This document shows, piece by piece, positions 4,354 through 38,319 of a stretch of 64,000 nucleotides of DNA. Numbering within the stretch: the stretch's first letter is position 1; the number at the start of each line of letters is the position of its first letter. This DNA comes from Ginglymostoma cirratum (lineage: Eukaryota), in the NCBI GenBank assembly GCA_024137785.1, contig JAHRHZ010000271.1, positions 18,211,151-18,275,150 of the forward strand, written 5' to 3'. The position numbers and the translations under genes were made by a program. A model generated the notes under the pieces. That model searched no databases. It was not told where the DNA came from and saw only the letters and a list, made by a program, of their open reading frames with translations.

Positions 4354-4980
4354 TAGGCCTTGACCCCAGAAGCTGCCAATCTTTGGTGATCTGGAATGTC
4401 AGTGTTGAGGCCTGTGATAAGCTGAGATACTTGCCCATACTAATCTGTCAAATCTTCATGAGCTGATTGGTGCATAATTAGGCATGTCTTTCTGACATAT
4501 TTGTCCCCACACTTTTCAAAGTAGAATCACAAAATTGCACCCTCTGATTTTATGTTTGGCCAGGCTTCCCCATGCTCAAATTCCAGAGGATTGCAGTCCC
4601 TTTGATGCTCCTGAGCACCATTCTCCTTCAAGTCTGGGCCTAAAACTCAATCACATTGTTGTAGATAGAATTCCTGAATACCTAACACTAGGGTCGGGGT
4701 GACAAGTTCCCTTTAGTGAAGGGTTTTTTTTTTTCTCTTTCTCTTTCCTTGCAGTTTTGTGATAAGGTGGTGAATAAGCAGCAGAATGCTGTACATGATG
4801 TCTGTGTTTTACATATTACGTATGTCCCTTTGGAGCAATTTTCCCCATTCCACTCATTGTTTAATTTGCTGTTTTATTAATCCTTGTGGATGGATGTGCT
4901 TGACAGCACTTGAAAATGTGTCAAAATATGCACATTTGTGATTTGTGTTTTCTTTCTATTAACTTGTTTCTTTTCTCCAG

Positions 4981-5031
4981 AAATCTGGTGGTGCAGGAGG
5001 AACGAAGCCCAGAGGTAGACCCAAGAAACTG
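4981..5031 (+). CDS. HMGA1: HMGA-family internal exon A, third-AT-hook module, KSGGAGGTKPRGRPKKL (HMGA1-like)
   Basis: Strong acceptor aacttgtttcttttctccag and donor CTG|gtaggc. The exon is 51 nt, phase 0/0, the same size and phase as the AT-hook-3 exon of vertebrate HMGA genes. It has the PRGRP core, and its end KPRGRPKKL is identical to HMGA1 (KTTTTPGRKPRGRPKKL). The family call is solid; HMGA1 versus HMGA2 is less certain from 17 aa. Confidence 0.85.
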
Positions 5032-5456
5032 GTAGGCTACATGTTTGATTTTCAGATTCTTGAAAAGCGCTGGGTTTGGATAACAACTATGCATTGAACA
5101 TCCAATTGTTAACTTGATGATTTTGATTTCAACAAAACTGGCAGCAGACCATGATCAGCAAAACTTTACAGTCATGAGGCTAGCATTTTCAAGTTATGTC
5201 TGTCTGCTTTGGTGATGTTATTCACACACAAGATGTTATAGTGAGACACACATTCTTGAATTAAGATACAATTTAAGGTGACGTTTTCATGTTCCAGCCT
5301 TTTCTATTCTTTTATTAAGAAGGTGGGCAGATATATTTGTAGAATATGTTGACCTGTTTTGAGGCCATTGAAGCATTTGCAGCATTTTAAGAGGTTTTGT
5401 AATGGGAAGTGGGGAGGGGAAAGGCATGAAGCTGTATTGGATTTGTATGTTCTGAA

Positions 5457-6712
5457 TTGATTCGGAACAGTCAGCATGGTTTATGCGAGGAAAGTCGTGT
5501 CTCTCAAACTTAATTGAGTTTTTTGAGGAAGTTACCAAAATGGTGGTTGATGGTAGGGCAGTAGATGTTGTTTATTTGGATTCGAGTAAAGCCTTTGATA
5601 AGGTTCCGCATGGTAGACTACTTAGTAAAGTCAGGTCACGTAGGATTCAGGGTGAGCTTGCCAATTGGATACATAATTGGCTTAATGACAGGAGACAGAA
5701 GTAATGGTGGAAGGTTATTTTTTGGACTGCAGGCCTGTGACCAGTGGTGTTCCACAAGGATTGGTTCTGGGTCCTGTTTTTTTTTGTTTGTCACTTGTAT
5801 AAATGATTTGGATGAGAATATAGAAGGCATGGTTTGTAAGTTTGCAGATGACGCCAAAATTGGTGGCATTGTAGACAGTGAAGAAGGTTTTCTAAGATTA
5901 CAAAGGGATCTTGATCAAATAGTTCAATGGGCTGAGAAATGGCAGATGGAGTTCAATCTGGATAAATGTGAGGCATTGCATTTTGGTACAACAAACCAGG
6001 GAAGGGCTTGTACAATTAATGTTAGGGCCTTGAGTAGTGTTGTAGAAGAGGAATCTACGCGTGCAGGTACAAAATTCTTTAAAGTTTGTGTCACATATAA
6101 ACAGGATGGTTAAAATGTGTTTGACATGCTTGCTGTTATTGCTCAGTCCTTTGAGTATAACAGTTGGGATGTTATGTTGAAGTTGTACAGGACATTGGCA
6201 AAGCCTCTTCTGGAAACCTGTGTCCATTTCTGGTCGCCCGGTTATATGAAGGATATTATCAAGCTGGAGAGGGTTCAGAAGAGATTTGCCACGATATTGC
6301 CGGGCATGGAAGGTTTGAGTTATAAGGAAAGGCTGAATAGGCTGGGACTTTTTTCGCTGGAATGTCGCAGGTTGAGAGATGACCTGATAGAAGTTTATAA
6401 AATAATGAAAGGTATAGACAGAGTTGATGGTAGTCTTTCCCCTAAGAAGGAAAATTTCAAGACTAGAGAGCACATTTTTAAGGTGAGAGGAGAGTAATTT
6501 TAAAAAAGACATGAGGCAAATTTTTTTACACAAAAGGTTGTTTGCAGGTACAATTACAGCGTTTAAAAGACATTTGGATGGATATATGAATAGAAAAGGT
6601 TTGGAGGGATATGAGCCAGGGGCAGGCAGGTGGGACTAGTTTAGTTTGGGATCATGTTCAGCATGGACTGGTTGGACCAAAGGGACTGTTTTTATGCTGA
6701 ATGACTCTATGA
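5457..6712 (+). mobile_element. 5'-truncated CR1 (HER1-like) LINE: RT C-terminal half and 3' UTR, frameshifted
   Basis: ORFs 5483-5704, 5565-6113 and 6117-6497 give RGKSCLSNLIEFFEEVT, DVVYLDSSKAFDKVPHGRLL, KFADDAKIGG, WAEKWQMEFNLDKCE and LGLFSLECRRLRDDLIEVYKIM. The tail ends ...gactctatga. Confidence 0.95.
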
Positions 6713-9700
6713 ACCTGGAATGCACTGCCTGGATAGGCATTCGAGGCAGCAGACCTCAACCTTTAAAATGTAAGTGGATGAGCACTTGAGACATCATAAC
6801 ATTCAAGTCTATGGGCCAAGTGCTGGAAAGTGAGATTAGGGTAGAAATGTCCAAGCAGACTTTGCCTGCAGACGTGGACCAAACTTATTTTTTAAAAGTT
6901 ACATTATTAGTTGTAAGCAACTCTAATACTATGAGAACCAAAGCTAACCGATCATAAAGGGTAGCTTTTATGACTGATTTTTTAATTTTTATAAACTAAC
7001 TATTTAATAGTTAATTAATTGCTTGGTAATTAACAACTGTTAATTTTATAGATTATTTTGTTTAACTTATGCCCCACTACGTCGGCCTTTTTAATCTGAC
7101 ATTTTCTCTTTTTTTAGAAAAATGGTTTACATTATTTTGGTTTCCTAGTTTGGTTTTTCTTTCATCTTGCTTCTATGTCCATTTTGATAGTGGGAGATAA
7201 TTTTTAAAAGGTATTTTCCACACTTGATGACAGCTTTAAAGAGTGGATTCCAGTTAATCAAAAATCCCAGATGTGAAGATTAACATTGTTGCATCACGTT
7301 CAATTTGATTCATCTTTCTATTTTGTTTTCTTGCTGATGTTCTGCCCTTCTATTTCTCTTCTCCAAATTGTCAAAATGGCAATTCTTTATTTATTGTAGG
7401 TTGACTTTTCAACTTGTAGCAAATGGATATCTTGTTCCCATTTGAGTTTCCAGCAAGGGTCATAGATAACCATGAGGAATGCTAATCCATCCTACTTTAG
7501 GAGTCTGAGGCCAGTTGTCTCATCATGTCCATAAATGGACAGGGAGTGAGCTAATTCATTACATGCCGTGGATGTAACCTAAAATCCAGGACAATCTTTT
7601 GGGCTTCTGCTTTGGAGCAATGGAAAGACGTGTTGAAAGAATTTATTTGTGGTAAATTCACCAGTCAATCAGTATCCAGATGAGCAAATTCATCTGCAGT
7701 GCTAGAAAAGCACCAAAATAATTTTTTTTCTTATATCTGCATTGACAATGTTGACATGATACTCCTAGGAAGCTCACAAATTTACAATTGAATAGTTTCC
7801 ACCAGAGTATTATGAAAAGCAAAACTTTATTTGGGTACATTTTATTCTATTACTGCAAAAATAAATAAAAGACTTTGTACTGGGGGCAGTATTACTTGAA
7901 TTGTTTGACTTGCTTTCTTACTTTTTTCAAAAAAATGGTGTCCTGGATACATCTATCTCTTCTTCATTGCAGTTACCCATAAATAATGATAACCATGATG
8001 ATTTCAGATAAGTGCTTTATAATCCAGTATCACAATTTTATCACCTGCGTCCTGAATTTGGAATTAGTTTTTTTCTTTGCTTTGTGCGGCAATTTGTATC
8101 TCTCATCTAAACTAGTTCTGTAGAAGAAGATGGATTCTGTATAATTCCAGGTTTTGATTTAAACCATACGCCCTTTCCTGATCAATAATACATACGATTC
8201 ACAAGTTAAACTTAAAACTTTTCAAAGTTTTAATTCCAAATTGTAATGAAAGTCAATTTTAATTCTTCAGTTTGAATTTTGACAGGAGGGTGGAAATGCA
8301 GTGCATCCTAAAGTATGAATAAGTTTCTTTTTGTTTTGAAGTCATCCTGTTTTTCTTCAATTTATAGATTGCCCAAACTAAATTTTTGAACTTATATTTT
8401 ATATGGAGGCTGTTTGTCTCTCGTTGCAGTGCCACAACAAAACACAATATGTAATTAGTTGGTGAAAGTACATGAAAGTGATGAGTTGATTTTCCTTTCT
8501 CTCACGTGCATTCTTTCAGAAGCATTCTGCCTTTGCTCAGTGTCTCCATAGGTGCACACAGTTTGAAGAGTTTCTGACTTCCCTTGAAACTCTTTTAGAC
8601 TTTTGCCTCTGTGGTGGTTATAGCACTCAGTGGATTAACAGGGCCACTGTTTGTACCAAATTTGTGTTTGATAGCCATAGTATTGCTAGGGTCATTAGGA
8701 AATATAACAAGATTCAAAATATAACAAAATTCCAAGGAAATGCATGTTTCAAGTCAGAGCTTGTACTAACTGTTAACTCTGCAAAACATGGGATCTGAAC
8801 AGAGTGCATATCTTTAATCGGTCCACCATGCTCAGTTAAATTGCATGAAAAGGACCACGCAGTATTGTCACACTGAGCCACACTTTCACCAATTTGGAGC
8901 TTTGTTTACGATCCCTTGTACCGTCCGCAAGATATGGACACTCAATGTGACTCAGTTTTATAAACAATGAAATATTCTGATACCTTATCTAATTGGACAT
9001 TCTTCGTGTGTCTGTCCAGACTGAGACTGTTGACATGCTGCATGACCATGGGATACATCACACTTGAGCCAGAGCATGTCCTTATCTGACAATCACCTAT
9101 GCTGATTCACCATTAATTGGGCTGGATAGTGATTACAATTGGGAACCCTGATCGGGAAAGGAAAAATATCAGCCATAAGGGCATTAAGGCCAATTGTCAA
9201 TGTCCTTCTACTGTGATAACTGTGCTGAAGGAACTTAGGATTAAGTCTGTGACCTTCTACATTTTGTATGTCTCAATAACACTGCAGGTTATATATTTAT
9301 TCATAGTTGGGAGAAATTGATTATGGAAATTTTTTCAATATTTGTTTAAAAAAAACCGGAGAATACGGGTGATGCAGAATTCTTAATGGATTAGAACTTA
9401 GGCAAGTTATGTGCTTAAATTCTCTGAATAATGGAAACCGAGCTTCATGCGTGAATAGAACGTGATTTTCTGTCCATTTTGTGGTTTTTGATTGGAGAAT
9501 TCAACCTTGCTGCAATTAGGCAACGTAAGCTAATTGAACAGTTATTCAACTTACAAAAGTGTTGACTGAGATTTTAGTGGCCAGAAATGTACTAGAATCT
9601 GATAATACTTGATTATAATTCTCATTAGTACCACCAGGCAGTTTCAGAAATTGACTCTTAACATAATTTTCTGAAGTCATTTTGTGCAGAATTATATTAA

Positions 9701-10621
9701 AATGTTCTTTTACTGGAATTTCGCTACTATGTTCCTTTATGAAATTATTAAGAGTATTAATTCTTTGTCCTCTGTTAAGAGTTCTGGTTGAGACAAAAAG
9801 ATCGCCTTTTGCATACTCGGTTCTCTTAATTACCATTGAAGGAGTTTTTTTTAAAAAGAGCTTCATAATTACTTTTCTGAACCTGGTTTGGAAAAAATGT
9901 TTTAAATACAAGGCAGAACATCGAGGTGAGCACTTCTGTTAGGAAAAGTTCCTTCCCTAAGTTTGAAGGAAAGGATAAAATTCTGACTGGAGGAACCCAC
10001 TTCCCTCGCCAGAACTCTCTCAGATAAACTATTACATTTCACCAAATCTAGTTTACAGTCCCAGGTGATAAAATTATTCAAAGATGATGCTGTCCGTCTG
10101 ACAGCAGAGCAGCATCTAACACAAGACCCATTTCTTTGTTCTTCCTTGTTCCAAATATTGAAAAATAGCTGGCAGTACTGGAAGAACTGATTTCATATGC
10201 CCTCCGGCTGGGGGTCCTCATATGAGAGTGGGTTGGTTGTAGCAATTCCTCCAAGCCAGTGGCATTGCTTTGAGACACCGCAAGACACATAATACCCATC
10301 TCCCAGGAATGACACCAGTCCTTTAGTGGCTTTTGCTTGGTTAGTATGCACATTCTTTGATGTTCGGTTCATACAGTTTGCAAGTGGATTACTTGTTTTC
10401 ACATGATGACAGATGCTATCTGAATGTTTGACAAACCTGTGTCTTCTATGGCAGTAGTTCTGTTGAAGATTAGTTATGTTTGTGATATATTGGGTTAGTT
10501 TTCTTTCTTTGAATAAACGACCCCCAAGAAATTTGTTCTTTACTTGAAGCCATTGGGGACCAAACTGAATAATTGCGTCAAACCCATAAACATTTGCTGC
10601 TCTAATTTCTCTGATGTGCAG

Positions 10622-10856
10622 ACGTTTCCTAGACAAAGAAGGAGACCAATGGGAAATTATGCTGAACATGGCTCCATGGCAGTCCAAAAGAGAGACACTG
10701 ATCTCCCTTATGGATGGCATCAGTAGGCACCTTCAAGATCTCCATAAAGTTGTGATGAGGGAAATGGAGGGGATACAGAGGGCTATTAAAACCCTGGAGG
10801 ACACAGTTAATACAGCCCTGTTGGATATCTGTCAGTTATCTGAGGGAGCTCAATAA
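10622..10856 (+). CDS. Candidate terminal exon: phase 0 gives TFPRQRRRPMG...YGWHQ* (to 10726), another frame gives a coiled-coil-like peptide (to 10856)
   Basis: Acceptor ctctaatttctctgatgtgcag (AG 10620-10621) and purine-rich, exon-like composition. AATAAA at 11128-11133 is followed by a GU/U-rich tract at 11151-11170. No recognised homology. Confidence 0.3.
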
Positions 10857-12381
10857 GAAATTGGCAAGGAAAGTTGGGAAGTACTGTTGCAAGCTGGCAT
10901 AACGGAAAGACCAAGTCCTTCTGAAATTGTTGAAGGTGCATTGTTTGCAGCTGTCACCCACTATCCTTTTGCAAGCACACTAACTTGATTTTACTTCTTG
11001 CAAGTTATTTATTTGGTACTTATTCCTGCTCTTTCTCCATTGGTAGAATTTGTAGATGTAATGGTAGATTGTACAAAATGTATTTTTGATTCATAGAAGA
11101 AATATTTAGTTATTTTTGAGACTTGGAAATAAAAACGTTATCAACTTAAATTGTGCTTTTGATTCTTTTTCTGCACTCATCTTTCTGCTCCAATTTCTGC
11201 AAGACATTTCTAGACTTATTTTACGATCAAAGTTGTTCAGAATATTTCTGTATAGGATGTAACTAAACACTATATTGATCATAGGTGTGTGACTGTGTTA
11301 CAGTAAATTGTCAGAGTATTTGGTTTCATTTGAAAAGGGGCTGTGTGAATTGGTAGAAACGTTTTAAGGGGCTAAGGTCCTACCTGTTGGGGGTGGGGGG
11401 TGGTGCTGTAATTTAGTGTTGAGTGAACACTGTGTAATTTCCAGGTGAACATTCAGAACTGACCACTGCTAACATGACAGGGTGGGAGCAGAGATGATGA
11501 GGGCAGAATAGGGATTTACTCAAGGTTATCCAAGTTGGCTCAGATGATTCCAATACAGAGGACACATCCCTCAGAATCTGACCAACCCCAATTAAAATGC
11601 AGTAATTGGTGCCTCCTTACCAAAATTGAATCAGTACTACGTGAAACTGACAAAAGCAGCGTACACTTTACTTAAGCAGCACACAGATCTTGTCTATATA
11701 ACTCTAGAAATTCTTTTAAAAATACTTTTAAAAATGCCAGCTTTGATCTGTTTATCAAAGCAGATGTTTTGTAGAACTGTCCAGTGATCAAGGCCTACAT
11801 GACCCCAAGATTGCCACGTTCTCTTTTGAAATACTCCCTATCTTTATAATTTTGCTTCCCATTTGAATCCGTTGTTGCTGTTCAGTGTTTAGTTGAAATT
11901 CAGTTAGTTCTCTTAAGTATTCATTATGAAACAGAGATGTTTTTACTGCTAAAATGTCTAGAGTCGTGATTCAAATGACATGAAAGTGAAATAAATCAAC
12001 CAAACGTTATTTTCATTGAGTTTTGCAAACTGGTAAATTTGTGAAAGTGTATAAATATGTCCATATATATTAAAAGAAAAATTACTCCGGTGCTGTGAAT
12101 CCTCTGCTACTTGAAGGGTAAGCTATGTTACATAGAATGTTAAATGTTGAACGGAAACAGAACCCGTAGTAAGAAATATCGAATTTCAATTAATTACATA
12201 TGCACTACTGCACTAGGCATACTGGGTATGCCACTCCAGTTATAGCAATGGATTAGGACTAATGTTATTGAGTATACCTAAATCTGACACAGTTGTTACT
12301 GTTCTATAACCTCTTTATTCCAGTTGTATCAATTTCAACTCCAGGTTATAAAGTTAGATGCTTGAGGACAAGTTGACAACA

Positions 12382-12730
12382 GGGGTGGCACAGTGTCTCA
12401 GTGGTTAGCACTGCTGCCTCACAGTGCCAGGGATCTGGGTCCAATTCCAGCCTTGGACGACTGTGTGGAGTTTGCACATTCTCCCCGTGTCTGCGTGGGT
12501 TTCCTCCAGGTGCTCCAGTTTCCTCCCACAGTCCAAAGGTGTGCAGGGTAGGTGGATTGGCTATGCTAAATTGCCCGTAGTGTCCAGGGATGTTTAGGTT
12601 AGGTAGGTTAGACAAGGGAAATGCAGGGGTAGGGGAATGGGTCTGGGTGGAATGCTCTTTGGAGGGGTGGTGGGGACTTGTGGGCTGAATGGCCTGTTAC
12701 CACATTGTAGGGATTCTATGATTCTATGAA
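12382..12730 (+). mobile_element. HE1-type tRNA-derived V-SINE, full length
   Basis: tRNA-like head ggtggcacagtgtctcagtggttagcactgctgcctcacag, V-domain tgtgtggagtttgcacattctccccgtgtctgcgtgggtttcctcc, and tail gattctatgattctatga. Confidence 0.92.
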
Positions 12731-14400
12731 CATTTGTTTAGCGTAATTAAGAGTTCCAAGGTACTTCACAGGAGGGTGTCAAGCAAAACTTGACATTGAG
12801 TCACATATTGCTTTAGGTCATCTGCCCAATATTTCCTTATCAAAAAGGTAGATTTCAAGGAGTAATGTGAAACAGGGGAATTCAAGGCAGAGTGTCTTAG
12901 GAAAGGAATTCCAGAGCTTAACACTTGGAGAGTTGAAGGTTATGTTACTAATGGGTAAACTATTAAAAACAGATTCACAGCAAGTTAAAATTGGAAGAAT
13001 GCAAAGAGCTAAACACATGCGCGTACGCATGCACACCACCATTAATGAAACGTCCAAGCTGATAAACTGGGCCCAGAAGACACATGAATGAGGCAGCCCT
13101 TTCATCAAACTGTTTTCACAGAGCATTTGCAGGTTTTTTTGTTGCCCACTGCATTTCTCACAGGACTGATAAAAAAGTGAGTCATTTATGCAAGCTAAAA
13201 CTAGGCAGCAGAAGTGTCATTTAAAGGGATTGCCATGTGGCCATGTTTGAATGTACTAGCAGGTTCTACAGGGGAAGGTGACAACATCTGTGAGATAATT
13301 AATGACTTCTTTGAAATCTCAAAAAATTAATAGTAAAAATTGATTCTGAGGTCAGGGCCTTTACAATTCTAATGGCAACTGGCGCATTATCTTTTTGCTG
13401 GATCATGTATGCTGGAGTATGGATACCCATAATCCACATGTTGTATGTTCACACTAAGGTGTGATGCATATTCTGCTGTGAATGTAGCTGCAAAAGAAGT
13501 TCAACATTATATTTTGTATTAACTCTCTATCTCAAAGTCACGAGTTGACTATATTTTGAGATCTAAAAGACAGGCATGACAAGCTGGTCCTATTAATAGC
13601 TGCAGGATTGGAAACAGGACAGCTTATAGTAGGGAAATAGCTTTTGATGCATCTACAGTGGCCCTCATTCCTACTGGGCAGACTCAATTTGGCCATCTGA
13701 TGCTTGGTTGGCCCAGAGACAATGGGAGTGGGAGTTATTATACTCCTCCATATCTGTTCCACTTCTCTCATCCTGCCAAGAAATATGAAATATCACCCAG
13801 AGTTTTTTGGGGGAATGTAGGGCTGGAGGGGGTCACAGACCTCGAGAGCTATGAGGCCGGTAAGTGATTTGAAAACAATGTTTTGATTTAATTGATTTAA
13901 TTTTTGCATCCCTGTCAGGCCAGAATGGATGCGGGTCAGTGAACATAGGCGATGGGTGACTGTGACTTGGGATCTGTAGGGATGTGTGCAGCTGATGTTT
14001 GGATATGTTCATTTGTAAGGAATGTGCCAAATGGGAGGCTATCAAGTCCAGCATTGGGACATTTGAGACTAGATGTAACCTAGACAATCAGTGAGGGTTT
14101 TGGCAGCAGATGAGCTGAAGCTGTGTTGAAGACTGTCAGTGTAACAGAGTTGGAACTTAGTGATGGTGTGGATATGGTGTTGGAAACTCACTATGGGGTA
14201 AGATAGGTCTCTGAGTTTGTGGACAGTCAGACTTAGCTACAGACTGTGGCAAGGGAAGATGAATGTAATTAGTGTCTGGGACTGTAATGTTTTAGTCTTC
14301 CTTAGCTGGAGGAAATTTTTGCTCATTCAGCACTAGATGTCTAACAGCAACGTGAGAAATCAGAAGCAGTGGAAGAGTCGAGAGGTAGTGATGAAGTAGA

Positions 14401-14601
14401 GATAACAAGACGTGGGGCTGGATGAACACAGCAGGCCAAGCAGCATCACAGGAGCAGGAAAACTTGACGTTTCGGGCCTAGACCCTTCATCAGAAATGGG
14501 GGAGGGGAAGAGGGTTCTGAAATAAATAGGGAGAGAGGGGGAGGCGGATAGAGGATGGATAGAGGAGAGGATAGGTGGAGAGGAGGCAGACAAGTCGAAG
14601 A
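14401..14601 (-). mobile_element. Penelope-like pseudo-LTR fragment (young)
   Basis: Near-identical reverse complement of about 26990-27198. Possible TSD gaagtaga at 14393-14400 and 14602-14609. Confidence 0.9.
14466..14493 (-). ncRNA. Minimal type I hammerhead ribozyme motif (Penelope-associated)
   Basis: The minus strand reads CTGATGA-A-GGG-TCTAGG-CCC-GAAA-CG-TC: both catalytic boxes, stem II, palindromic ACGT stem III and a GUC cleavage triplet. Confidence 0.8.
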
Positions 14602-17600
14602 GAAGTAGAACTATCAACATACGTATGGAATTCAAAATGTCTTTAAATATCGTTGAGGGGCAGCATAACAATGAAAAATAGCTGTGGGTTGGGAATTCCT
14701 GCAGTGGTGGCACACCACAAGTGTAAGCTATTTATTTTTTCTTGACTTGAAGTCCAGGCACAAAGGTGCCTGGTCCAGTGCAAATGTGCTGGTTGAAGAG
14801 CAAATCCAAGCAATGGTATGGTGCAATGGTCAGTAACACAAGATTCACGTCCTCACCCTCCTGTTTGGTCTGACCTTCTCACTTGTGGTTTCTAGTATCC
14901 TCTGGTTTGCTGATAAGTAAAATGAGTCAGGTTGTTTTTATTTTTAATCACCTCTGGTGTGTTGTGAGGATCTTGAGCCTGATGCAGTGAATGGGTCAAG
15001 ATGGATCAAGAATGCTCAGCGTCAGTCATACCAGAGACCACAAGGCATCTTCTGAACTATATAATTTACCATTTTTCCTCACTTTTCCTTATCCATACAT
15101 GAGAGTAATTTGTTTCCCATTTCCAATCTGGCAGCATGCTTCAAAATAGAATTAATCGCCCTGTGCCAGCGTGTTTTTCTATGTTTCACCAATTTCCTTT
15201 CAACATGTACTCAGGTCAGAAACAAAATTGTGGAGTGATAATTATGCATGCCATTTAGAACATTTGTGACCATTTTGAAATCAGCTCCAAGCTCCAGGTA
15301 CTGTTTTCATTATGCTTTCTGCAGCCTTAACATTTATGCATACTCTTCATTGTGGTATTTACATATAAAAATGATATTTTTGTATATGCATTGTACTTTT
15401 GTTATTTATTACCTACCTTGAAATGGTGATCAACAGAGTTTGCTGTTTTTAGAAAGTAGAATTGCATTGTTTTGGAGGTTCATCCCTGCTATTACAGTTT
15501 TATTTGTTTTCTGACTTGATATAGTATTGATAGTAGGGAAAATAAACATTTGATTCTTCCAGATTTCAAAATGGCCAAACCCTTCTATTCTATTTGGAAC
15601 TTTTGGTCTGTTGCAAGCCTTCTGCTAGGGAAACAGCTCATCAATGAGTGAATGTGAACCTTAAAATTGTTTAGACATTTTGAAGCAATTAACTGAAAAT
15701 TGTGAGGATTCCACTACTAATGCTGAAATAGTTAACAGCTAATCAGACCAGAAACGAATATCAAAGAAGACAGACGGAATTACATCAAAGTAATTAATTT
15801 TTAGAGTTCACATCCCTTTGTAAGATACATTTTATGGTTAAGATGTCTGATAATTTCTTTCTTTCACACAGGATGTATTGTTGTAATGGCTATTTTGTTA
15901 TCTTAATGCCACTGGTGATCCAAGCTGATAGCCCGCAAAAAGCTGCCTTGTGGGTGGGTTTTCATGCCTGTGGTTTTCAATGAGACAAATATTGTTAACC
16001 ATTTTATCTTGACATTTGTACCACCCGCAAGTAGAATTAAAGATAATCTTGATCTTTTTAGATAAATACATGATCGTATGTATTGCATTATAAACCAGTT
16101 TGATAAACAAAGCTTTACGACATAGGCGTGATCAAACTGACCGAAACTCTCAGTTTTATTTAATCTGAAACTGAGCTCTTTTCTGGTCACACAAAACAGC
16201 GCGAGTACTGTACCAAACAGTTGGACAGGCATAAGTGACCACTCTTTTAAAGACTATGGCTATAATGGACCAAATTTTATTTCTTTGCTTTGAAATTCAG
16301 TGATTTTCCATTCTTATTACTTAGAAAAGGACTTCTATTTTTTAAAAAGCTTTCTTTTTATATTTTGCCTCTTCTCATAATTTTTATTTATCCTGACTCA
16401 ATTTATTTAGTTTTATTTTATTTGAAGCCCTTATCTCAGGCAGACTCTATTTTTGTTTTATATTAAGCCTGCAATTGCAAGGTTAATTCCATTTTCTGAT
16501 TTACAATTTGGTATTGACACAACAGTTTACATTAAATCTGAAGTATTTGATGAGGATGCATTAAGACCAGCTAAAGCACGACCTGTACGTATATGTATGG
16601 TGCAGTAATTGTAACTATTTTGCTTTTGCGTCTGAAAGTGGCATTGGGTGATTGATGGCTGTTTGGCATTCATGTCTTCTGCTGTCTCTGAGATATTGCA
16701 TGAACAGTTGTTGAAGTGCTTTCCTAATCAAATGTATCACAAATGTGATAGAGAGCAAAGCATCCACAGCAGTCTGATCTCTACTTCAGAAGCATAGTCC
16801 TCTGTGATTTTTGTTTTCAAAAAGAACTTCTCACACTAGGCATTTACCCTTCTTTCAGTTGTGTTGAATTATGGGTTTATAAATGGTCAAATTTGGGTTA
16901 TCTAACTGTTAGTTTGGGATCCAATTTAATGACAGAAAGAAGAGATTTATTTCTTCAAACTTTAAGGGATATCCAGTGTCAAAGGCATCAGCAGTACACC
17001 AGTACGTTGCCCTAGGCAACATCATGTATGAAGCTTGACAGATAATGTTGGTAGGCAATTTAACTGAAGCACGCATCAAAACTGAGCCCAAACCAACATT
17101 TTCCAGCAGAGTTGGATTGATGGCAACGAGAAGTGGGAAACTTTGCTAATTACTTTTCTTCCAGCCTACCTAAGAATATTAAAGGATATAGATTACGTCA
17201 TGTAGCTCAGCGTATGTTGAAAGTAGAGCCTAGGACATGCTGTATGTTCTGGTGTTCCAGCATAAAGTGCCTTTACCGATTTAGACTGTCAAGGTCTCAA
17301 TTGCTTCTTTAAATCTCTTACTTGAATATCTCAATTAAAGGGCTCCAGTCTGCATTCGTTGATTTTCATATGAGTAAAAAATAATTCTGCTTCAACAATG
17401 ATTTGCTCAAGTACAGCATTTAGAGAAAGATTCAGCAGAGAGAATTGATTTAGTGATGGGGTTCAAAGGTGATGGATTGGTGTTTTGTCCATAAGTGGTA
17501 AATAGCCAATTGAACAGGTCCAATGACCTATGAAGGCTTCTTATGGGAAGTCAATTAGAACATTTTAGTTCAAATCCCAGCAGCTCCTGAGACATTTGGG

Positions 17601-18144
17601 ACTTGGCAGTTTCCATGGAGTGGACTCCTGGTGGTGGACTGAAGGGCCAATATACTCCAGTCAGTGTTTGAGGCAATCTCTGTGTATCTGTACAGATGCA
17701 GCGAGAGATCGCTCTGTGGAAGGGTTTGCAAACCTAGCTGCTGAGGCTATTTTTCAAGTTAAGAGTTTTAAAATGTGCGGAGAATGCACCTCAAACTAGA
17801 AATGCCCCTCTGTCTCTGACCTGAAGTCCTTCATCTCACAGGGCTTAATTGGTCAAGCCAACTTCCTTAACTAGATGGTAAACTCATTCTCGAGCCACTA
17901 ATCGGTCAATTTGAAAAATTGCTTCCAGATGAAGTGTTTTCTGCACAATAAAGGGCTGAGACCCTCATTTAACCCTCCCCTTGGTATCTTGACCCAAAAT
18001 CCTGCCCAGTGGCTTTAGTCTTTCCAAACCTCAGCTGTGAAAAGGTTGCAGCTTATCGAAGACTAGATTTCAGGCATACAATATGACAAAGTGTAATGGT
18101 TGAAAAGGATAATAGAGAAAAAAGCTTGTGACTTTAGGAGATAC

Positions 18145-18310
18145 AATGGATGTAGTGATTATATTGGTGAATCTGTACTCCAAACGTCTTGAATAATGAT
18201 CCAGAGGAATGAGTTTGGATCCAAACAAGACACCTGAGAATTTGAATTCAATTAATTAAATAGGTCTGGATTATAAAATTCTTTTCAGTCATGGTGACAA
18301 TGAAACTACT
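18145..18310 (+). mobile_element. Degenerate SacSINE1-like Deu-SINE 5' part
   Basis: Decayed tRNA head with a B-box-like atgagtttggatcc, followed by gaatttgaattcaattaattaaataggtctggattataaaa...catggtgacaatgaaactac, homologous to 42710-42800. Confidence 0.6.
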
Positions 18311-19107
18311 TGACTTAAGGAATGTACTAAGTGACAGCAGCTTCAATGAACAGGGCAGAGAGGCATCAGATGACCATATCAACCGTTCATAGAGGACCGG
18401 AAGCATATTGCACCATGCTCACAATGATAGAAAATATTGTATTCTGAGATCGTATCAATGGTCTGTAGAAACCTAATTTGAAAGATACAAATGCAGTAAA
18501 GTAGGTAAACAAAAGATTTAATTGAATTGTGTAACAACAGAACAAGGAGAAATGAGTGTTAGGAATACAGGGGAAGAGACTATGATTAGCTAATGAAAGA
18601 CATGACATTACCTCAAAGCTTTAATTTAAAACCAAAGCCAATTATGCAGTGCAGTGGAAGACCATTGGCAGCAAAGGAATGTTCTTTGCATTCTGCTGTT
18701 GGTTTTAAGTGAAAGATATTTGAGTTATTCATTTTGCAGATAAAATGCACTCTATCTTAATAATGCTTGAGCATATTAACAATTTTTAGCATGAATTTCT
18801 ATCCATCAGTAGACATCTTGCAGTTGAGAGGAACATTCTATATCTAATTTGCAAATGTATTCTGAAGATCTGATGGAATTTGAATTTAATAATAATAATA
18901 GTAATAAACACACACTGTCCATTTGAACTATTGTATTCAAAGAGGTGATATTTCTTACCTTTTTTGATGAATAATTGCAGAAAACTATTGTCCATCTCTT
19001 TTGATGACTTGAATTCAGATCGGAAACTCTTTAATGTGCTTCCAGTCTTCCAATGAAGATTGCGGTGTGAATGTACGTGTCACACTGGTTATGTATAAGT
19101 AAATACA

Positions 19108-19612
19108 TAATTCATGGGATGTGGGCATTGTTGGCTGTGCCAGTGTTTTTTGTCCATCCCTAGTTAGCCTGGGGAAGGTGGCGATGAGCTGCCTTCTTGA
19201 GCCGCTACAGCCCTTGTGATGTAGGGACACCTTTCGTGCTTTATGAAGGGACTTCCAGGATCTTTATCTAGTAAAGGAATAGCAATACAATTTTTGGTCA
19301 GGATGGTATGTGGCTTGCGTCTGCTGCCCTCGTACTTTTAGTTGGTCATTGATTTGGAAGAGGCAGATGGAGGAGCTTTGGCGAGTAACTGTGGTGCATC
19401 TTGTAGATTGTACACACTGGTGCCATATGCATCAGTGGTGAAGGCTACGCATGTTGAAAGTGGTGGATGGATGTGAATAAAGTGGGGTGCTCTGTCCTGG
19501 ATGGTGTCAAGCTTGGGTGTTGTTGGAACTGTACACACTCAGGCAAGTGTTGAACATTCCATCACACCCCTGACTTGTACTTTACAGATGGTGGACAGAC
19601 ACTGGGGAGTTT
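19108..19612 (-). mobile_element. Family-B LINE 3' fragment
   Basis: Starts with the reverse complement of the 463-795 tail (attcatgggatgtgggcattgttggctgtgccag...). The minus ORF 19338-19538 has PTTPKLDTIQDRA. Confidence 0.75.
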
Positions 19613-21855
19613 CAGGTACTGTTAAATCCCAAAGTAACTAATTTTCATAAAAACCAATGCTCATATGTGGTGTTCGCATTTTTTATAGTGTAGAATTACT
19701 GACTCAACAAGTCCTATCATTTAAAAAACATTGCTAGTAGGGCGGGGAAAGTCAAGCTATTAAATCATCTGAACACATTTTAGTGAATAGTATGAAATGT
19801 TGAACTCTTGCAAATAGTGTTTGATTCTGTAATCACAATATTCACTTAAATTTTAAAATTTTATTATTAATCCTTTTTCTATCACTGATCCAGAATGTCG
19901 TTAATTATGTGTGTAAAATCTTCAGATGATTTCCACCAGAAATTAGTGATAAAATGTATTTAAAATTGCCTTTGAAAATCATGGGCATGAATTCCAATTG
20001 TGGGAAAATGTATGTCCTTTTAAAATGTGAAAGACATGAAGCTGCAAAATCTGAATGGCTAAGGATGTTATTTTTAAAGAATATTTATATAATATTAAGT
20101 ATAGTATGCCACCATTTTAAAAGTATGTATATTTTTAAAGTACATTTTAATTGCAGTAAATTAGACTTAACGAATCCTCTTAAGTCTTATTTGCATGTCT
20201 GGCTCATTAAATCTACGGAATGAAAGTACATTTTGTGGTTCTTTGTGGCGTTATTGTGGTCAGTTATACAAGCCAAAATTTCTGTTCTTGGATTTTTGTC
20301 ATGCTAGGTCAGCAATCCCACAGACCTGTAGAATCCTGGCTCTAACGTGTAACTTGTTATTTGTCACTGAAATGAAAATTGTGTTTGTTATTAATGCACA
20401 AATGTAAATAATTCTGGATCGAGAATGAAGAAGTATGCACAGTGTTATTTAGGATATGGCAATATAAGATTTTACCTTTAGAAACTTAATGTTGATTAAG
20501 TTGAACCAGATTAGCCTTGAGATTGATCTATGTAGCAGTTTGTAATTGTAATCTGTCATTGTTTTTGACATTTCACAAGTTTGCCAAGTCTTTTGCAGCT
20601 TAAATGCTATCAGAATAGCTTAAAACAGAGTATTACTTTTGTCTGCTAACGCGCAATGATTTCTACCAATTTGCATCATACAATTGCCAGAATGGTGTGC
20701 AGTTATGGAGTGCAATTACACTTCAGTACCTCTTTAAACAGAAGGTTTAGGAAGTACTTAGTGCAAGATGTTCCACTGTACACTCGGGTTTCATTCTCCC
20801 CCGCTTTACAAAATAGCCCTCGAGATATCATCATGTTGTTCTTCCACTGGGAGAGTCTGTTGCCTAGCCCAACCTCATCTTCACATATGTAAGTAAGGAT
20901 CCACGCGCGCACACATGCACACATTTCAACAGTAGTTTCTGGATAGCAGTCAGGAGCAGGAAGCCTGGCTGGCTTCTCTCTCATTCTGTCCAATAAAAAG
21001 GCATTAACACCAATTACACTGTCGAATCACCGTCCTAATAAAGATAAGCTAGTTCCAAATGGGGCAATGATTGAACCTAAATTTTCCTGGTTTGTGTCTC
21101 AAATGTACACAGGACTTCCTGACCCAATTATTAGCGAATCTTTGCTGAAGTTTTAAAGGACCTTCTACAGCAATGGAATAATTATCATAATGTTGGAAAA
21201 CTACTTTTCCCTTTTTTGTTTGGTGAGGTGTTCTATTGCAATATTAAGAAAGAGAATAATAGATTTCTACATGTTTGTAGCCTGGGTTTATTTCCATTAC
21301 TTTGCTAAACTGATGTAGAAATTTGGCCTATTATATTATTTGCCCTGGAATCTGGTGGACAATTAGTGAGATATTGACAATTTTAGGGGCACACAGTAAA
21401 AATGTAAAGTGTTAAATAATTGGGCAAGGTCTCATATATACAATTGTCTAACTGACTGGATATTATAAAAATTATGATTATTTTGGCTGTTTGAACTAAT
21501 TTCAACTTTATCACTATTTGTATTCCGTTCTGGGATACTTTCACTGTTTAAGCATAACATTTGTCTTTGCCTTTTTGAATCTTTTTCTGTCTGGCTTTAT
21601 TCCAGTCCCACCACTGAAACCAGCCTAGGCAAATATCCAGTGTAAGTGCGATTGTGAATTTTTATCCTCTTTCATTGCCTCATCCTTTTCACAGCCTTCA
21701 ATATAGTAAGACACACCATGCTGATTTATCACTCTACAATGCAACTTCAAAAAAGTACCTGTTTCAAATTTCGTTGTTACCTATTCCCTGCACCCCGATG
21801 CCAGTGATCCCAACACACCTCTAATATTAGATTCACCTCTTATGCCTGCATAGTT

Positions 21856-22186
21856 GGGCGGCACGGTGGCTCAGTGGTTAACACTGCTGCCTCATATCGA
21901 CCCGGGTTCGATTCCATCCTTGGATGATGGTCAGTGTGGAGTTTGTACATTCTCCTCGTGTTTGTGTGGCTTTCCTCCAGGTGCTCCGGTTTCCTCCCAC
22001 AGTGCAAAGATGTGCAGTTTAGGTGAATTGGCCATGTTAAATTGCCCACAGTGTTCAAGGATATATAGAATAGGTGGATTACAGGGGGACGGGTCTGGGT
22101 GGGATCCTCTGAGGTTTGGTGTGGACTTGTTGGGCCGAAGGGCCTGTTTCCACACTTTGTAGAGACTCTATGGTATGATTCTATGA
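21856..22186 (+). mobile_element. HE1-type V-SINE inserted in an old L2-like fragment (about 21590-22700)
   Basis: Head gggcggcacggtggctcagtggttaacactgctgcctca, B box ggttcgattcc, V-domain, and tail ctctatggtatgattctatga. Confidence 0.92.
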
Positions 22187-23297
22187 TAGTTTGGTTTGAG
22201 TCAAAGTACCAATCTTCCTCCATCCATAGCACCCAAAACCCAATTCGTTGCTCTATTTTGTTGCCGACTCAACCTGAATTAATGGTGGATAACTGCCCCT
22301 TTGCTAACCAGATAAGTTTCAAAACTCACATCCTTTCTAACTTAAAACTACCTTTTTTCCATCTCAGAAATATTACCTTCTTGATTTCTCGTTTCTCAAG
22401 TGGCATTTACATTCTCAATTACCTCTTTGTTTCTCAGGAATTGACAATTGACGTTGATCCACGCAGAATTCAAAAGCTGTACTCTCTGTAAATACCAGTT
22501 GGTCCAACACTTCAACTTTTGCATCCAAGCTCAAATGAAATCATAGTAAAATATCAGCATTGTTCTCAGCACCATCTGTTGCCTCCCATTCCAAATCAAT
22601 TCATTTAAAATTCTCATTCTTATTTACAAGTTTCTTGGTGGGCTTAATGTACTCAATCCTGTAACAAATCCTATTTCTTGGCACCGTCCTTAATACTTTT
22701 GTGCTTGAACAGCTATCCTTCCAGTTCCCCTGTATTTTTGATTCTTATTCCTGTTTGTGACTTCTCCCTCTATTCCAGGAGATATGCTATCTTGGTGTGT
22801 CATGCTCGTCTGTTCTCTCGTATCCCCTGTTTGCTTGTTTGCACCCACTCTGTGATTTAACTGTACCTAGCTTGATCTTCTCTTACTGCTGTTCACTTAC
22901 TAGAATTCTCTGCAGATTTTCATCTGTGAGTAAATGGCTGAAATACTGACTTTTCATTTTTGGATGTCACCATGTCTATTTAAAGCACTTATTTATTTCT
23001 CTTACAGTTTGTGTTTGGAATTTTATGCAATTTGTCTTAGCAGCAATTCACAATTCAGAGCACTCAATTTTTTTCCCTAAACTTTTATTATTGTCTGAGG
23101 CATACAGGAAACTGGATAGAATGAAATATCTTATGAGTTTGTATTTTTTTTAACTTGTTAGAAGCTTGAATTCTTGTGCTGTTAATATACCCTTCATCTT
23201 CACAACACGGCTTCTGGCTATCTCTGTCCTTCTCACTTCGGCAGCTTGTCCATCACCTTCTGGCAGCCTTTGTCCTAAATAGACAAATTTTTATTTT

Positions 23298-24088
23298 CAT
23301 TTGTTCATTGGATGTGGGCATTCCTGGCCGGACCAGCCTTTATTGCCTGTCCCTGGTTGCCCTTGAGAAGGTGGTGGTGAGCTGTATTATTGAGCAGCTG
23401 CAGTTCTTGGGGTGTAGGGACACCTACATTGCTATTAGATAGGAAATTCTGTTGTTTTGAAACAGTGACAGTGAAGGAATAGAGACATGGTTCCAACCCA
23501 GAATAATGTAGGGTTGAAGGGAAACTTGAGGTGTTGGTGCTTGCATGTATTTATTCCCATGTCCTTCCAGGTGGTGGAGATCATGGGTTTGGAGAATGCT
23601 GTAGAAGGAGCATTGGTGAATTGCATCTTATAAATGGTACGTGCTGCTGCCACGTTGTGTCGGTGGTGGAGGGAGTGAATTTTGAAGATGCTGGGTTGGG
23701 GAGCCTAATCAAGTGGGCTGCTTTATCCTGGATGATTTGAGATTTTTTTTTACAATTATTGGAGTTCCACTGAGGCAAATGGAGTGTATTCTATCACACC
23801 TCTGCCTTAGGCCGTGTAAATGGTATTCGGGGTTTGAGGACTCAGGAGTTGAGTTACTTGCCTCAGAATTCCTAGCCTTTGACCTATTCTCCCAGCCACA
23901 GGGGCAATATTTATATGACTGGTCCAGTTTATCAGGAGTTTCAGAGATTGTAAGGGTGATGGCACTGCCATTGAATGTCAAGTGGAGATGGTTAGCTCTT
24001 CTTTTGTTGGGCATTGTCATTGCCTGGCATTTGTGTGTCGCAAATATTATTTGCTATTTATCGGCCAAAGTCTGGATGATGTCAAAAT
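23298..24088 (-). mobile_element. Family-B LINE 3' fragment
   Basis: Same tail as 463-795 on the minus strand. The minus ORF 23581-23778 has IIQDKAAHLI. Confidence 0.75.
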
Positions 24089-24426
24089 CCAGTGTAATAC
24101 CAAAATCATCAATCTTCATACTAGTTTCTACCAATGCATCCTTCTAACTAACGTTTCTTTTGTCTTTTTGGTGTTCAATCTCAATCCTTATTCTAAATTT
24201 TTAGATTTTACTTGACCTATGATATTTTGTAGATACTCTTTTGATTCTGCAAGTAGCACTGTGTTTTCAGCGTACCAGAAGTTTGTCAAATTTGTGGCAC
24301 TCATTTGTGATAGACTCTTCAAATATCATGCAACTACGTTACAGATGTGTTCCTGAATGCCGCCTCCATGTTTCACTCTTTCCAATGTTTAAAAGCCTTC
24401 TCACAAACCATCTCCTAGATTTTCAA

Positions 24427-24590
24427 GATAACAAGGTGTACAGCAGGCCAAGCAGCATCAGAGGAGCAGGAAGGCTGACATTTCGGGCCTAGACCAACCT
24501 CCCTGCTCCTCTGATGTTGCTTGGCCTGCTGTGTTCATCCAGATCTACACCTTGTTATCTCAGATTCTCCGGCATCTGCAGTTCCTACTC
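24427..24590. mobile_element. 164-bp Penelope-derived fold-back (head-to-head pLTR pieces) with a 16-bp TSD
   Basis: TSD tctcctagattttcaa at 24411-24426 and 24591-24606. The left arm (gataacaaggtgta-cagcaggccaagcagcatcagaggagcagg) pairs with the right arm (cctgctcctctgatgttgcttggcctgctg...tacaccttgttatc). Confidence 0.9.
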
Positions 24591-24797
24591 TCTCCTAGAT
24601 TTTCAATTTAGGTGGCACACAGTACAGGGATTACGAAGCTTCTTGGGATTTTTCTTTTTCTTTTTGGCAACATGATAGTTACTGTATAAGTAGAAGTTTA
24701 TTTTTATGTTGACCCCTGTGAAAAATGAACAGCTTGGTGTACCAAAAACACACCACCACTGCTTTGCATTCTAATTATGTTTTCCATGGAATTCCAG

Positions 24798-24848
24798 AAA
24801 GGTGAAACGTCAGGAACAAAAAAACCCAGAGGTAGACCAAGAAAAAGG
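24798..24848 (+). CDS. HMGA-family internal exon B, a second copy of the third-AT-hook module, KGETSGTKKPRGRPRKR (HMGA2-like sequence)
   Basis: Acceptor ...atgttttccatggaattccag and consensus donor AGG|gtaagc. The exon is 51 nt, phase 0/0, and aligns without gaps to HMGA2 exon 3 (KAEATGEKRPRGRPRKW) and to exon A (33/51 nt, 9/17 aa). Confidence 0.8.
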
Positions 24849-25984
24849 GTAAGCAATTTTGTTTTCCCTAAAAAAAAATCTTTCACTAACAGTGTTTGCT
24901 ATTTTTCTACATTTTTTAAATCTTGCTTTAAGTTTGCTTGGGTAATGTGGCTTTCTCAAGGCCTTGTAAATCTTTTATTACACCTCTAAACGTTTATTTT
25001 CTATTAATCCAGTATCCAGCATAAGTGAAATATGCATTATATATTGCTACCTGTCATAGAAAACCAGATTTCTTTAGATATGAACTTTGTTATCTGTTAT
25101 GCATGTTAAGTCATGTCTGCCACGCTTATTGTCCACCTGGTACAAAACACAAAGAAGACGTGCAAATACCTGTAACATTATCAGAATTGTTATACTTGAA
25201 GTAACAGTAACTAGCAGTTAATTTAAGGCAACTAATTCAATGTGTTCATTCTTCCCTCTGATTTGTTTTATTTTTATCTACTAACTAACTGTTATTCTTA
25301 TTACTTGTAACTGTGTTTAGTTTTTGCGTGCAAAGACTTTTGTTTAAGGTTCATTTACTTGGGGACAAGCTGTACTGAAGAGTATTTTGGTGATGGTATC
25401 AGCAGTGTACGGTGATGATCTTTTGGAAATATGCAGAGTAGGGATATTTTGACTTCAATCAGTATGTAGTTCTGATTTGATGCCAGTACTGCCATTTTCC
25501 ACACTCACACCTGAGCGTGCATTCTGCAGCAGGAAGGAGATAACCTCCCCAACACCCCATATAATATCCCCATCCTCTAATACCAGATTATGGGCACGTC
25601 TCCTTGGCCTACAGCATGCCAAAGAAAAAGAGCAGAGGAGATACCAAGCAGGACAAGCTGCCAGAGAAGGGAGGGGAGAACGACTCCGAGCAAGACGGTT
25701 ATATTATTTGGGGAGTAGTTGTCATTCTGATGCTAAGTGAGGAGCGGTGTGCTAATTATGTGTGATGGAGTAACAGTATCTACATTGAATGCTGCCACTT
25801 TCTGTACCTACATTTGCAGCCTCAGACCAAGGTGAGGGCAACATCGTCAGTATCTGTGAAGGTAACTGTGGCTTTGAATTTTTATACGGGGATTCTTTCC
25901 GTCCAAGAGCAGATAACATACATAACATGCGTGGGGCTGGATAAACACAGCAGGTCAAGCAGCATCATGGGAGCAGGAAAACTT

Positions 25985-26012
25985 GACGTTTCGGGCCTAG
26001 ACCCTTCATCAG
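25985..26012 (-). ncRNA. Minimal type I hammerhead ribozyme motif
   Basis: The minus strand reads CTGATGAAGGGTCTAGGCCCGAAACGTC. Confidence 0.8.
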
Positions 26013-27105
26013 AAATGGGGGCCGCCGCCCCCCAAGAGGGTTCTGAAATAAATAGGGAGAGAGGGGGAGGCGGATAGAAGACGGATAGAAGAGAAGATAG
26101 GTGGAGAGGAGGCAGACAAGTCGAAGAGGCGGGGATGGAGCCAGTAAAGGTGAGTGTAGGTAGGGGGGTAGGGAGGAAATAGGTCAGTCCAGGGAGGACG
26201 GACAGGTCAAGGGGGCGGGATGATGTTAGTAGATAGGAGATGGGGGTGTGGCTTGAGGTGGGAGGAGGGGATAGGTGGGAGGAAGGACAGGTTAGGGAGG
26301 TGGAGATGAGCTGGGCTGGTTTTGGGATGCGGTTGGGGGAGGGGAGATTTTGAAGCTTGTGAAATCCACATTGATACCATTGGGCTGCAGGGTTCCCAGG
26401 CTGAATATGATTTGCTGTTCCTGCAGCCTTCGGGTGGCATCACTGTGGCATTGCAGGAGGCCCAGGATGGACATGTCGTCTGAGGAATGGGAAGGGGAGT
26501 TGAAATGGTTCGCGACTGGGAGGTGCAGTTGTTTGTTGCGAACTGAGCGCAGGTGTTCTGCAAAGCCTCCGCTTGGTTTCCCCAATGTAGAGGAAGCCAC
26601 AACGGATACAGTATACCACATTGGCAGATGTGCAGGTGAACATCTGCCTGATGTGGAAAGTCGTCTTGGGGCCTGGGATTGGGGTGAGGGAGGAGGTGTG
26701 GGGGCAGGTGTAGCACTTCCTGCGGTTGCAGGGAAAAGTGCCGGGTGTGGTGGGGCTGGAGGGGAGTGTGGAGCGGACAAGGGAGTCGCGGAGGGAGTGG
26801 TCCCTCCGGAAGGCAGATAAGGGTGGGGAGGGAAAAATGTCTTTGGTGGTGGGGTCTGATTGCAGATGGCAGAAGTGTCGGAGGATGATGAGTTGGATCC
26901 GGAGGTTGGTGACCTGTCCGTCCTCCCTGGACTGACCTATCTCCTCCCTACCCCCCTACCTACACTCACCTTTACTGGCTCCATCCCCGCCTCTTCGACT
27001 TGTCTGCCTCCTCTTCGCCTATCTTCTCCTCTATCCATCTTCTATCCGCCTCCGCCTCCCCCTCTCTCCCTATTTATTTCAGAACCCTCTTCCCCTCCCC
27101 CATTT

Positions 27106-27133
27106 CTGATGAAGGGTCTAGGCCCGAAACGTC
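27106..27133 (+). ncRNA. Minimal type I hammerhead ribozyme motif (sense to the host gene)
   Basis: CTGATGA A GGG TCTAGG CCC GAAA CG TC, with a short stem I possible between attt (27102-27105) and aagt (27134-27137). Confidence 0.8.
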
Positions 27134-27306
27134 AAGTTTTCCTGCTCCTATGATGCTGCTTGACCTGCTGTGTTCATCCAGCCCCACGTTTGTTATCTCG
27201 GATTCTCCAGCATCTGCAGTACCTTTTATCTCACATACATAACATCTTCACTATTGAATTGTGCATAAGGAAGACCATTGAGATTGTGTATTCATCGAAA
27301 GAGGGG

Positions 27307-37726: not shown

Positions 37727-38319
37727 GAAATAATAGGTACTGCAGATGCTGGAGAATCCGAGATAACAAGGTGTGGAGCTGGATGAACACAGCAGGCCAA
37801 GCAGCATCATAGGAGCAGGAAGGCTTGACGTTTCGGGCCTANNNNNNNNNNNNNNNNNNNNNNNNNNNNNNNNNNNNNNNNNNNNNNNNNNNNNNNNNNN
37901 NNNNNNNNNNNNNNNNNNNNNNNNNNNNNNNNNNNNNNNNNNNNNNNNNNNNNNNNNNNNNNNNNNNNNNNNNNNNNNNNNNNNNNNNNNNNNNNNNNNN
38001 NNNNNNNNNNNNNNNNNNNNNNNNNNNNNNNNNNNNNNNNNNNNNNNNNNNNNNNNNNNNNNNNNNNNNNNNNNNNNNNNNNNNNNNNNNNNNNNNNNNN
38101 NNNNNNNNNNNNNNNNNNNNNNNNNNNNNNNNNNNNNNNNNNNNNNNNNNNNNNNNNNNNNNNNNNNNNNNNNNNNNNNNNNNNNNNNNNNNNNNNNNNN
38201 NNNNNNNNNNNNNNNNNNNNNNNNNNNNNNNNNNNNNNNNNTCTAGGCCCGAAGCGTCAAGCCTTCCTGCTCCTATGATGCTGCTTGGCCTGCTGTGTTC
38301 ATCCAGCTCCACACCTTGT
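37727..38319. mobile_element. Head-to-head Penelope-like insertion with an assembly gap inside and a 14-bp TSD
   Basis: Inverted pLTR ends flank the gap. TSD catcacataggtga at 37713-37726 and 38320-38333. Confidence 0.88.
37842..38241. other. Assembly gap (400 N)
   Basis: Run of N. Confidence 1.

Follow-up and report, generated by a model that had tools for sequence, protein, structure and literature searches.

The HMGA1 gene of sharks very probably carries a tandemly duplicated third AT-hook exon, the first copy of which (exon A) is likely always used, with the second (exon B) likely acting as an optional cassette. Both copies were found on the + strand of a 64,000-nucleotide (nt) stretch of Ginglymostoma cirratum DNA (hereafter the window, to which positions refer), exon A at 4981..5031 (KSGGAGGTKPRGRPKKL) and exon B, the duplicated fourth AT-hook exon, at 24798..24848 (KGETSGTKKPRGRPRKR). 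Each is 51 nt long, of phase 0/0, and bounded by a ccag/AAA acceptor and a donor reading gtaggc (exon A) or gtaagc (exon B); the two are identical at 33/51 nt and 9/17 amino acids (aa), and their common 14-nt core has exactly two occurrences in the window. An earlier note, made from the letters of this DNA by themselves, had listed the length, phase, splice sites, shared nucleotides and common core of the exons and all were reproduced, as was the dissimilarity of the intron flanks that it reported: alignment of the 500-nt flanks of A with those of B gave scores of 25 and 23, no better than the maxima of 26 and 32 from 100 shuffles each. A pattern combining hook and donor returned five matches in the 4.36-Gb genome (two with a reversed control), namely exons A and B, a single exon of each of two further HMGA genes, and one non-HMGA exon; given such rarity genome-wide, the A/B pair does not represent a chance occurrence. 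HMGA membership was rejected for the fifth match (contig C82), which we take to be a chromobox hook. In the HMGA1 models of both whale shark and epaulette shark, residues 63-79 and 80-96 match the peptides of A and B, respectively, at 100% identity.

The two exons belong to one gene, shark HMGA1. Within the window and 200 kb on each side of it (464 kb of contig C271), the gene was found to be ordered as exon 1, exon 2, A, a decayed and likely dead exon C, B, and acidic tail, all in phase 0. Exon 1 (window-relative -23258 to -23157), exon 2 (-20233 to -20150) and the acidic last exon (73192-73251 plus stop, approximately 9 kb downstream of the window) are each single and on the + strand; no second set of HMGA exons was found in the 464 kb, and the motif [PG]RGRP[RK] occurs only four times therein. 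The proposal of the earlier note that A and B share one gene was borne out by this single set. That the pair might instead be split between two genes, result from misassembly, or comprise a live exon and its dead duplicate finds nothing in its favor beyond the masked, unreadable stretches of the contig, and against it stand the lone set of exon 1, exon 2 and tail, the unrelated flanks of A and B, and the conservation and joining of both peptides in the models of 12 species, which already refutes it; its probability is regarded as negligible. The A-B intron (5032..24797, +) extends over 19.8 kb, has GT..AG ends, is rich in repeats, and contains the remnant of exon C. In line with the earlier note, the stretch between A and B yielded no further hook exon, no exon for the acidic tail and no CpG island, but the note had overlooked this decayed alternative last exon, which occupies 10517-10856.

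According to PMC3723657 (available portion), an HMGA protein comprises three hooks and an acidic tail. The acidic C-terminal tail, a trait of the family, is present in this gene, and the AT-hook motif of the family was recognized by PF02178 (20.3 bits, cut-off 17.4) in a relative (P0001) with A and B exons matching those of the window at 100%. The further trait of exactly three AT-hooks does not hold: the gene has four hook exons, providing four hooks in the A+B model and three in the model that skips B. The protein encoded by exons 1, 2, A and B is 100% identical to a whale-shark model (P0036), a match that points to a carpet shark, the database name of close relatives is 'high mobility group AT-hook 1a', and the named non-shark matches to exon 1 are all HMG-I/Y, the remaining matches being unnamed. 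C271 also bears a LEM-domain gene, 105 kb upstream of exon 1, and, at a distance of 10 Mb, a spliced RPS10-family gene; these two, which we presume to be marks of the HMGA1 region, formed the basis of the synteny test, GRM4, SMIM29 and NUDT3 lying outside it. The traits of an HMGA2 orthologue, namely Trp after hook 3, an extra fourth exon, and MSRB3/LLPH neighbors, are absent here and were found with a gene on contig C21. Synteny, which the earlier note had advocated for assigning orthology, places the present gene in an HMGA1-type neighborhood and HMGA2, together with MSRB-family and LLPH genes, on another contig.

The use of the two exons was assessed with 161 retrieved proteins, 40 of them HMGA1 models of sharks and rays and 121 others (tetrapod where named). 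Exon A is present in 40/40 of the shark and ray models, and A+B, encoding four hooks, in 21/40 from 12 species (8 shark and 4 ray), with B invariably following A and never occurring without it (0/40). By type of ending, the models divide into A+B+tail (10), A+B with another end (11), A+C (12), A with another end (1), and A joined to the acidic tail with B skipped (6). No protein with four hooks was found among the 121 others, and a query comprising the A+B+tail region gave 7 matches among 319 candidates, all to sharks or rays. With A in every model, B in about half of them and B alone in none, constitutive use of A is likely, as is a role of B as an optional cassette that adds a fourth hook. 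Of the two products envisaged in the earlier note, the four-hook protein was recovered in these models, whereas mutually exclusive A and B isoforms were not. Such an arrangement, by which the third hook made by one gene would be of either HMGA1 type or HMGA2 type, has some appeal in that A and B are homologous and equal in length and phase, an exon 2-B-tail transcript would be in frame, and tandemly duplicated exons are often so spliced (PMC9741552 and PMC8373072, in the text available); however, the lack of B-only models, the 21 models with both exons, the six joining A to the tail, and the 19.8 kb between the exons, which excludes steric hindrance, together render it highly improbable.

Several points weigh against the preferred reading. 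The splicing patterns rest on automated models with no junction reads seen, and a rare form skipping A would be missed. Runs of N, which lay outside the analysis, account for approximately 10 kb of the exon 2-A intron and for some short stretches, and acceptor strength was gauged by pyrimidine count alone. No HMGA1 of a bony fish, chimaera or lamprey was present among the best 120 of 609 matches, and for this reason the absence of B beyond sharks and rays applies to tetrapods only. A comparison of positions 4900-12400 with four contig sets yielded no splice joint among the matches listed, the signal being almost entirely repeat-derived and exon B lying outside the stretch. Among the sequencing runs listed for a query centered on exon A there was no RNA data set, a result that counts neither way, and slight depth in the bin of exon A in one possible RNA run was set aside.

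Pyrimidines occupy 16/20 positions of the exon A acceptor (longest run, 11) and 13/20 of that of exon B (longest run, 6), the latter being the weakest tract of the four live acceptors (16-17/20 and runs of 10-11 in the others), and this weakness fits a skippable exon. Flanking inverted repeats were also considered as the main cause of B skipping and rejected, because B scores 0 in a 14-mer test (7/120 control sites score) and skipping is also modeled in distant species; one 41-nt inverted pair of 88% identity does bracket B. As separate observations, a cluster of repeats resembling short interspersed elements surrounds exon B in both orientations (24440-24532, 25918-26209 and 26910-27196), and includes a 38-bp hairpin 270 nt upstream of the exon. 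The ends spliced after B vary by species and have the appearance of unconserved exonizations; positions 52015-52068 match a minor alternative last exon after B in a Chiloscyllium plagiosum model, with a stop codon here. A repeat-derived segment approximately 13.3 kb upstream of the window (in the region of the exon 2-A intron; locus L020 by position) resembles the odd C-terminus of a sawshark model (P0005), and further copies lie at 30307-30473.

Several AT-hooks bind cooperatively. Judging from the database models, the gene would give rise to three products, viz. four hooks with the acidic tail (116 aa), three hooks with the tail (99 aa) and, in sharks with an intact exon C, three hooks with a helical tail (195 aa). 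Inclusion of B would provide an additional contact with the minor groove, placed 17 residues beyond hook 3; in the Heterodontus models, in which the acidic tail is unchanged, the net charge is +11 without B and +18 when it is included. With an extra hook and a higher net charge beside the same tail, the four-hook form is predicted to have a higher avidity for AT tracts that are longer or more widely spaced. The weaker acceptor of B would permit its skipping, such that splicing would set the ratio of three- and four-hook forms, and use of exon C would replace the acidic tail by what is likely a self-associating coiled coil. In the available parts of two reports, AT-hooks are described as binding the minor groove of AT-rich DNA (PMC7013770) and the acidic tail as regulating DNA binding (PMC7279267).

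The remnant of exon C (10517..10856, +) corresponds to an alternative last exon that encodes a 116-aa tail in other sharks, and it matches the C-terminus of the 195-aa shark isoforms with a tblastn E value of approximately 1e-33. An AATAAA at 11128..11133 (+), 272 nt past the exon C stop codon and the sole one within 10851-11600, is a candidate poly(A) signal. The acceptor position now reads AA in place of a presumed former AG, one frameshift has occurred and three codons are missing, and exon C is consequently likely dead in this species. Intact exon C directly follows A in the models of 8 shark species belonging to several orders, where it replaces the acidic tail with 116 residues (115-116 with a single indel). 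Across eight sequences, its first 68 residues share a mean identity of 80% and its last 48 residues 94%. The C-terminus has hydrophobic residues at 11/14 heptad a/d positions, a pattern from which the tail is likely to self-associate as a coiled coil, and in the AlphaFold model of a 195-aa relative, residues 148-194 form one confident helix, the rest being unstructured with no secondary structure before residue 148. A truncated version of exon C was found in the ray Narcine. No C-containing model was present among the carpet-shark models retrieved, and this distribution implies a lineage-specific loss of exon C in carpet sharks. The exon is single copy in the genome by both DNA and protein searches, and it gave no Pfam family, no meaningful match to a solved structure, and no Atlas match.

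A search of the genome with exon 2 identified the two additional HMGA genes. The first (G000:C21:20762154-20897540, +) is complete with five exons and a third intron of approximately 108 kb; these five exons, the Trp after hook 3, and the MSRB-family and LLPH genes on either side of it, with a LEM gene also nearby, identify it as HMGA2. The second, a third HMGA paralogue (G000:C64:7588943-7607081, -; loci L061-L063), has three HMGA2-like hook exons with Trp after hook 3; a search of 260 kb downstream revealed neither its last exons nor its neighbors. A single third-hook exon was found for HMGA2, and likewise for the third paralogue, in the 300 kb examined per gene, of which 10.8 and 22.7 kb, respectively, read N.

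Over the 17 encoded residues, A shares a mean of 10.5 identities with tetrapod HMGA1 and B 11.1 with HMGA2 and the third paralogue, in agreement with the description of A as HMGA1-like and B as HMGA2-like in the earlier note; the corresponding means are 8.3 between A and B and 7.8 between shark or ray A and HMGA2-type exons. The old exon duplication that it had proposed is likewise upheld by the conservation of A+B across 12 species of sharks and rays. IQ-TREE analysis of 24 rows of these 17 residues (a weak data set, from which the duplicate peptides A of Pristiophorus and B of Heterodontus were dropped) gave a free tree that split A plus tetrapod HMGA1 from B plus HMGA2 and the third paralogue, with support of 100/98. 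We read the pair as a tandem duplication inside HMGA1 in which B would have kept older, HMGA2-like residues, and the trees favor, short of proof, an old duplication followed by loss of B in bony vertebrates. A duplication before the separation of sharks and bony vertebrates, with B lost from the latter, is given a little under an even chance. On the opposite side, the approximately unbiased (AU) test of an A+B clade was model-dependent, with p values of 0.071 and, in three fast-search runs, 0.017, 0.28 and 0.39, and WAG+F did not discriminate between the three trees, the best of which under this model was not the preferred one.

A duplication confined to cartilaginous fishes, arising in their stem and with B drifted or selected back to an HMGA2-like hook, differs from this reading on age only. 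It accords with the finding of A+B solely in sharks and rays, with the G-T-K motif and silent sites common to A and B, and with survival of the A+B clade in 3/4 AU runs. Several changes matching HMGA2 would be needed, however (Glu3, Lys8, Arg15, and Ala2 in rays and sawshark), and just 3 of 60 simulations under the A+B tree reached the observed likelihood gap of 7; we hold it to be plausible at rather less than even odds. The third possibility is that the exon pair predates the HMGA1/HMGA2 duplication itself, with tetrapod HMGA1 having kept A, HMGA2 having kept B, and shark HMGA1 both. This is the ancestral state, later partitioned between the paralogues, that the earlier note had raised, and the free tree is compatible with it, as is the start of ray B (KAE[TP]TG), which is like the KAE[AP][TA]G of HMGA2. 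A slowly changing B would yield the same tree, however, and both HMGA2 and the third paralogue show a single third-hook exon. Moreover, identical codons at identical residues, though small in number, are in greater proportion between A and B (7/9) than in the pairs B/HMGA2 (5/11) and A/HMGA2 (3/9), the value for HMGA2 and the third paralogue being 8/14, and amphioxus hmga is reported to resemble HMGA2 both by its number of exons and by the Trp that follows hook 3 (PMC7013770, available text). A pair of such age is accordingly considered unlikely.

Returning to the duplication within HMGA1, it is tentatively proposed that early jawed vertebrates possessed an HMGA1 with a pair of third-hook exons and a choice of three endings, namely four hooks, three hooks, or three hooks with a coiled coil replacing the acidic tail, which sharks would retain, and that bony vertebrates lost the ancestral-type B. 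The third hook of human HMGA1 would then be a derived duplicate, and the coiled-coil isoform of sharks would correspond, as a natural product under selection, to the HMGA proteins with replaced tails known from tumors. If true, a derived third hook would explain the absence from human HMGA1 of the Trp common to HMGA2 and amphioxus, and if B is the retained ancestral hook, the account of how human HMGA1 and HMGA2 diverged would be revised. Independent of its age, a four-hook form conserved in sharks and rays and switchable through one 51-nt exon offers a natural test of hook number and tail type in chromatin binding. Given a third paralogue and the isoform with exon C, the HMGA complement of sharks appears richer than the two-gene picture of a 2020 review, which lists two vertebrate HMGA genes and, in its available text, is without Callorhinchus, chondrichth- or 'four AT-hook' (PMC7013770). 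We regard the arrangement as a real and conserved form of HMGA1, present in automated annotation and apparently undescribed in the literature: the presence of A+B in automated RefSeq models lowers the surprise, no published description was found in a literature searched without most subscription journals, and the accessible portions of PMC10570362 and PMC4417111 do not mention it by term. Exon duplication is a common mechanism, which limits the significance of the finding.

Among the surroundings, the first exon of the LEM-domain gene (L009:1434-2843; G000:C271 from approximately 18082584, +) comprises about 470 codons and has a long internal repeat rich in Ser, Tyr and Asp, flanked by the LEM domain on one side and a hydrophobic segment on the other; we take this gene to be probably LEMD2 with an unusually expanded first exon. 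An exon associated with a CpG island (L006:8814-9008, -) and without a Pfam match resembles what we assume to be the start of C6orf89. Within the window, the two arms of a seemingly perfect inverted repeat of 281 nt abut directly at 37762-38323; part of the repeat reads N, and it may not be real.

In comparison with known systems, the shark gene is like vertebrate HMGA1 (HMG-I/Y) in exon 1, exon 2, the hook-3 type G-x-K-P-R-G-R-P-K-K, the acidic last exon directly after the last hook, and synteny, but it differs by an optional exon for a fourth hook and, in many sharks, by an alternative last exon that encodes a helical tail. Human isoforms are reported to vary in hook spacing and number via other splice choices (bioRxiv 10.1101/241927, as available in part). 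Exon B is like exon 3 of vertebrate HMGA2 (HMGI-C), with 11/17 aa and 34/51 nt identical to that of shark HMGA2; it differs in ending with Arg (AGG) where HMGA2 has Trp (TGG), and its host gene lacks the HMGA2 fourth exon and MSRB/LLPH neighbors. The shark A+C form, with three hooks and no acidic tail, is similar to the tail-less HMGA2 described in lipomas and transgenic mice (PMC7279267, available part), but it is a conserved, natural HMGA1 splice form with its own helical tail, likely dead in the present species. As with tandem duplicated exon substitutions (PMC8373072, PMC9741552 and PMC9013439, from the text available), an ancient duplicate of a short coding exon is under selection, and yet in the shark models the copies are added (A+B) rather than substituted. 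Finally, Xenopus XHMG-AT-hook 1-3 owe their increased number of hooks (6 or 8) to internal duplication of exons, and the number differs between transcripts, according to the available part of PMC3723657. Those proteins of approximately 300 aa lack an acidic tail, are found only in frogs and were considered non-canonical by their authors, in contrast to the canonical HMGA1 frame of the shark protein; the frog XHMG-AT-hook, as there described, is the nearest precedent for the gain of extra hooks through exon duplication.

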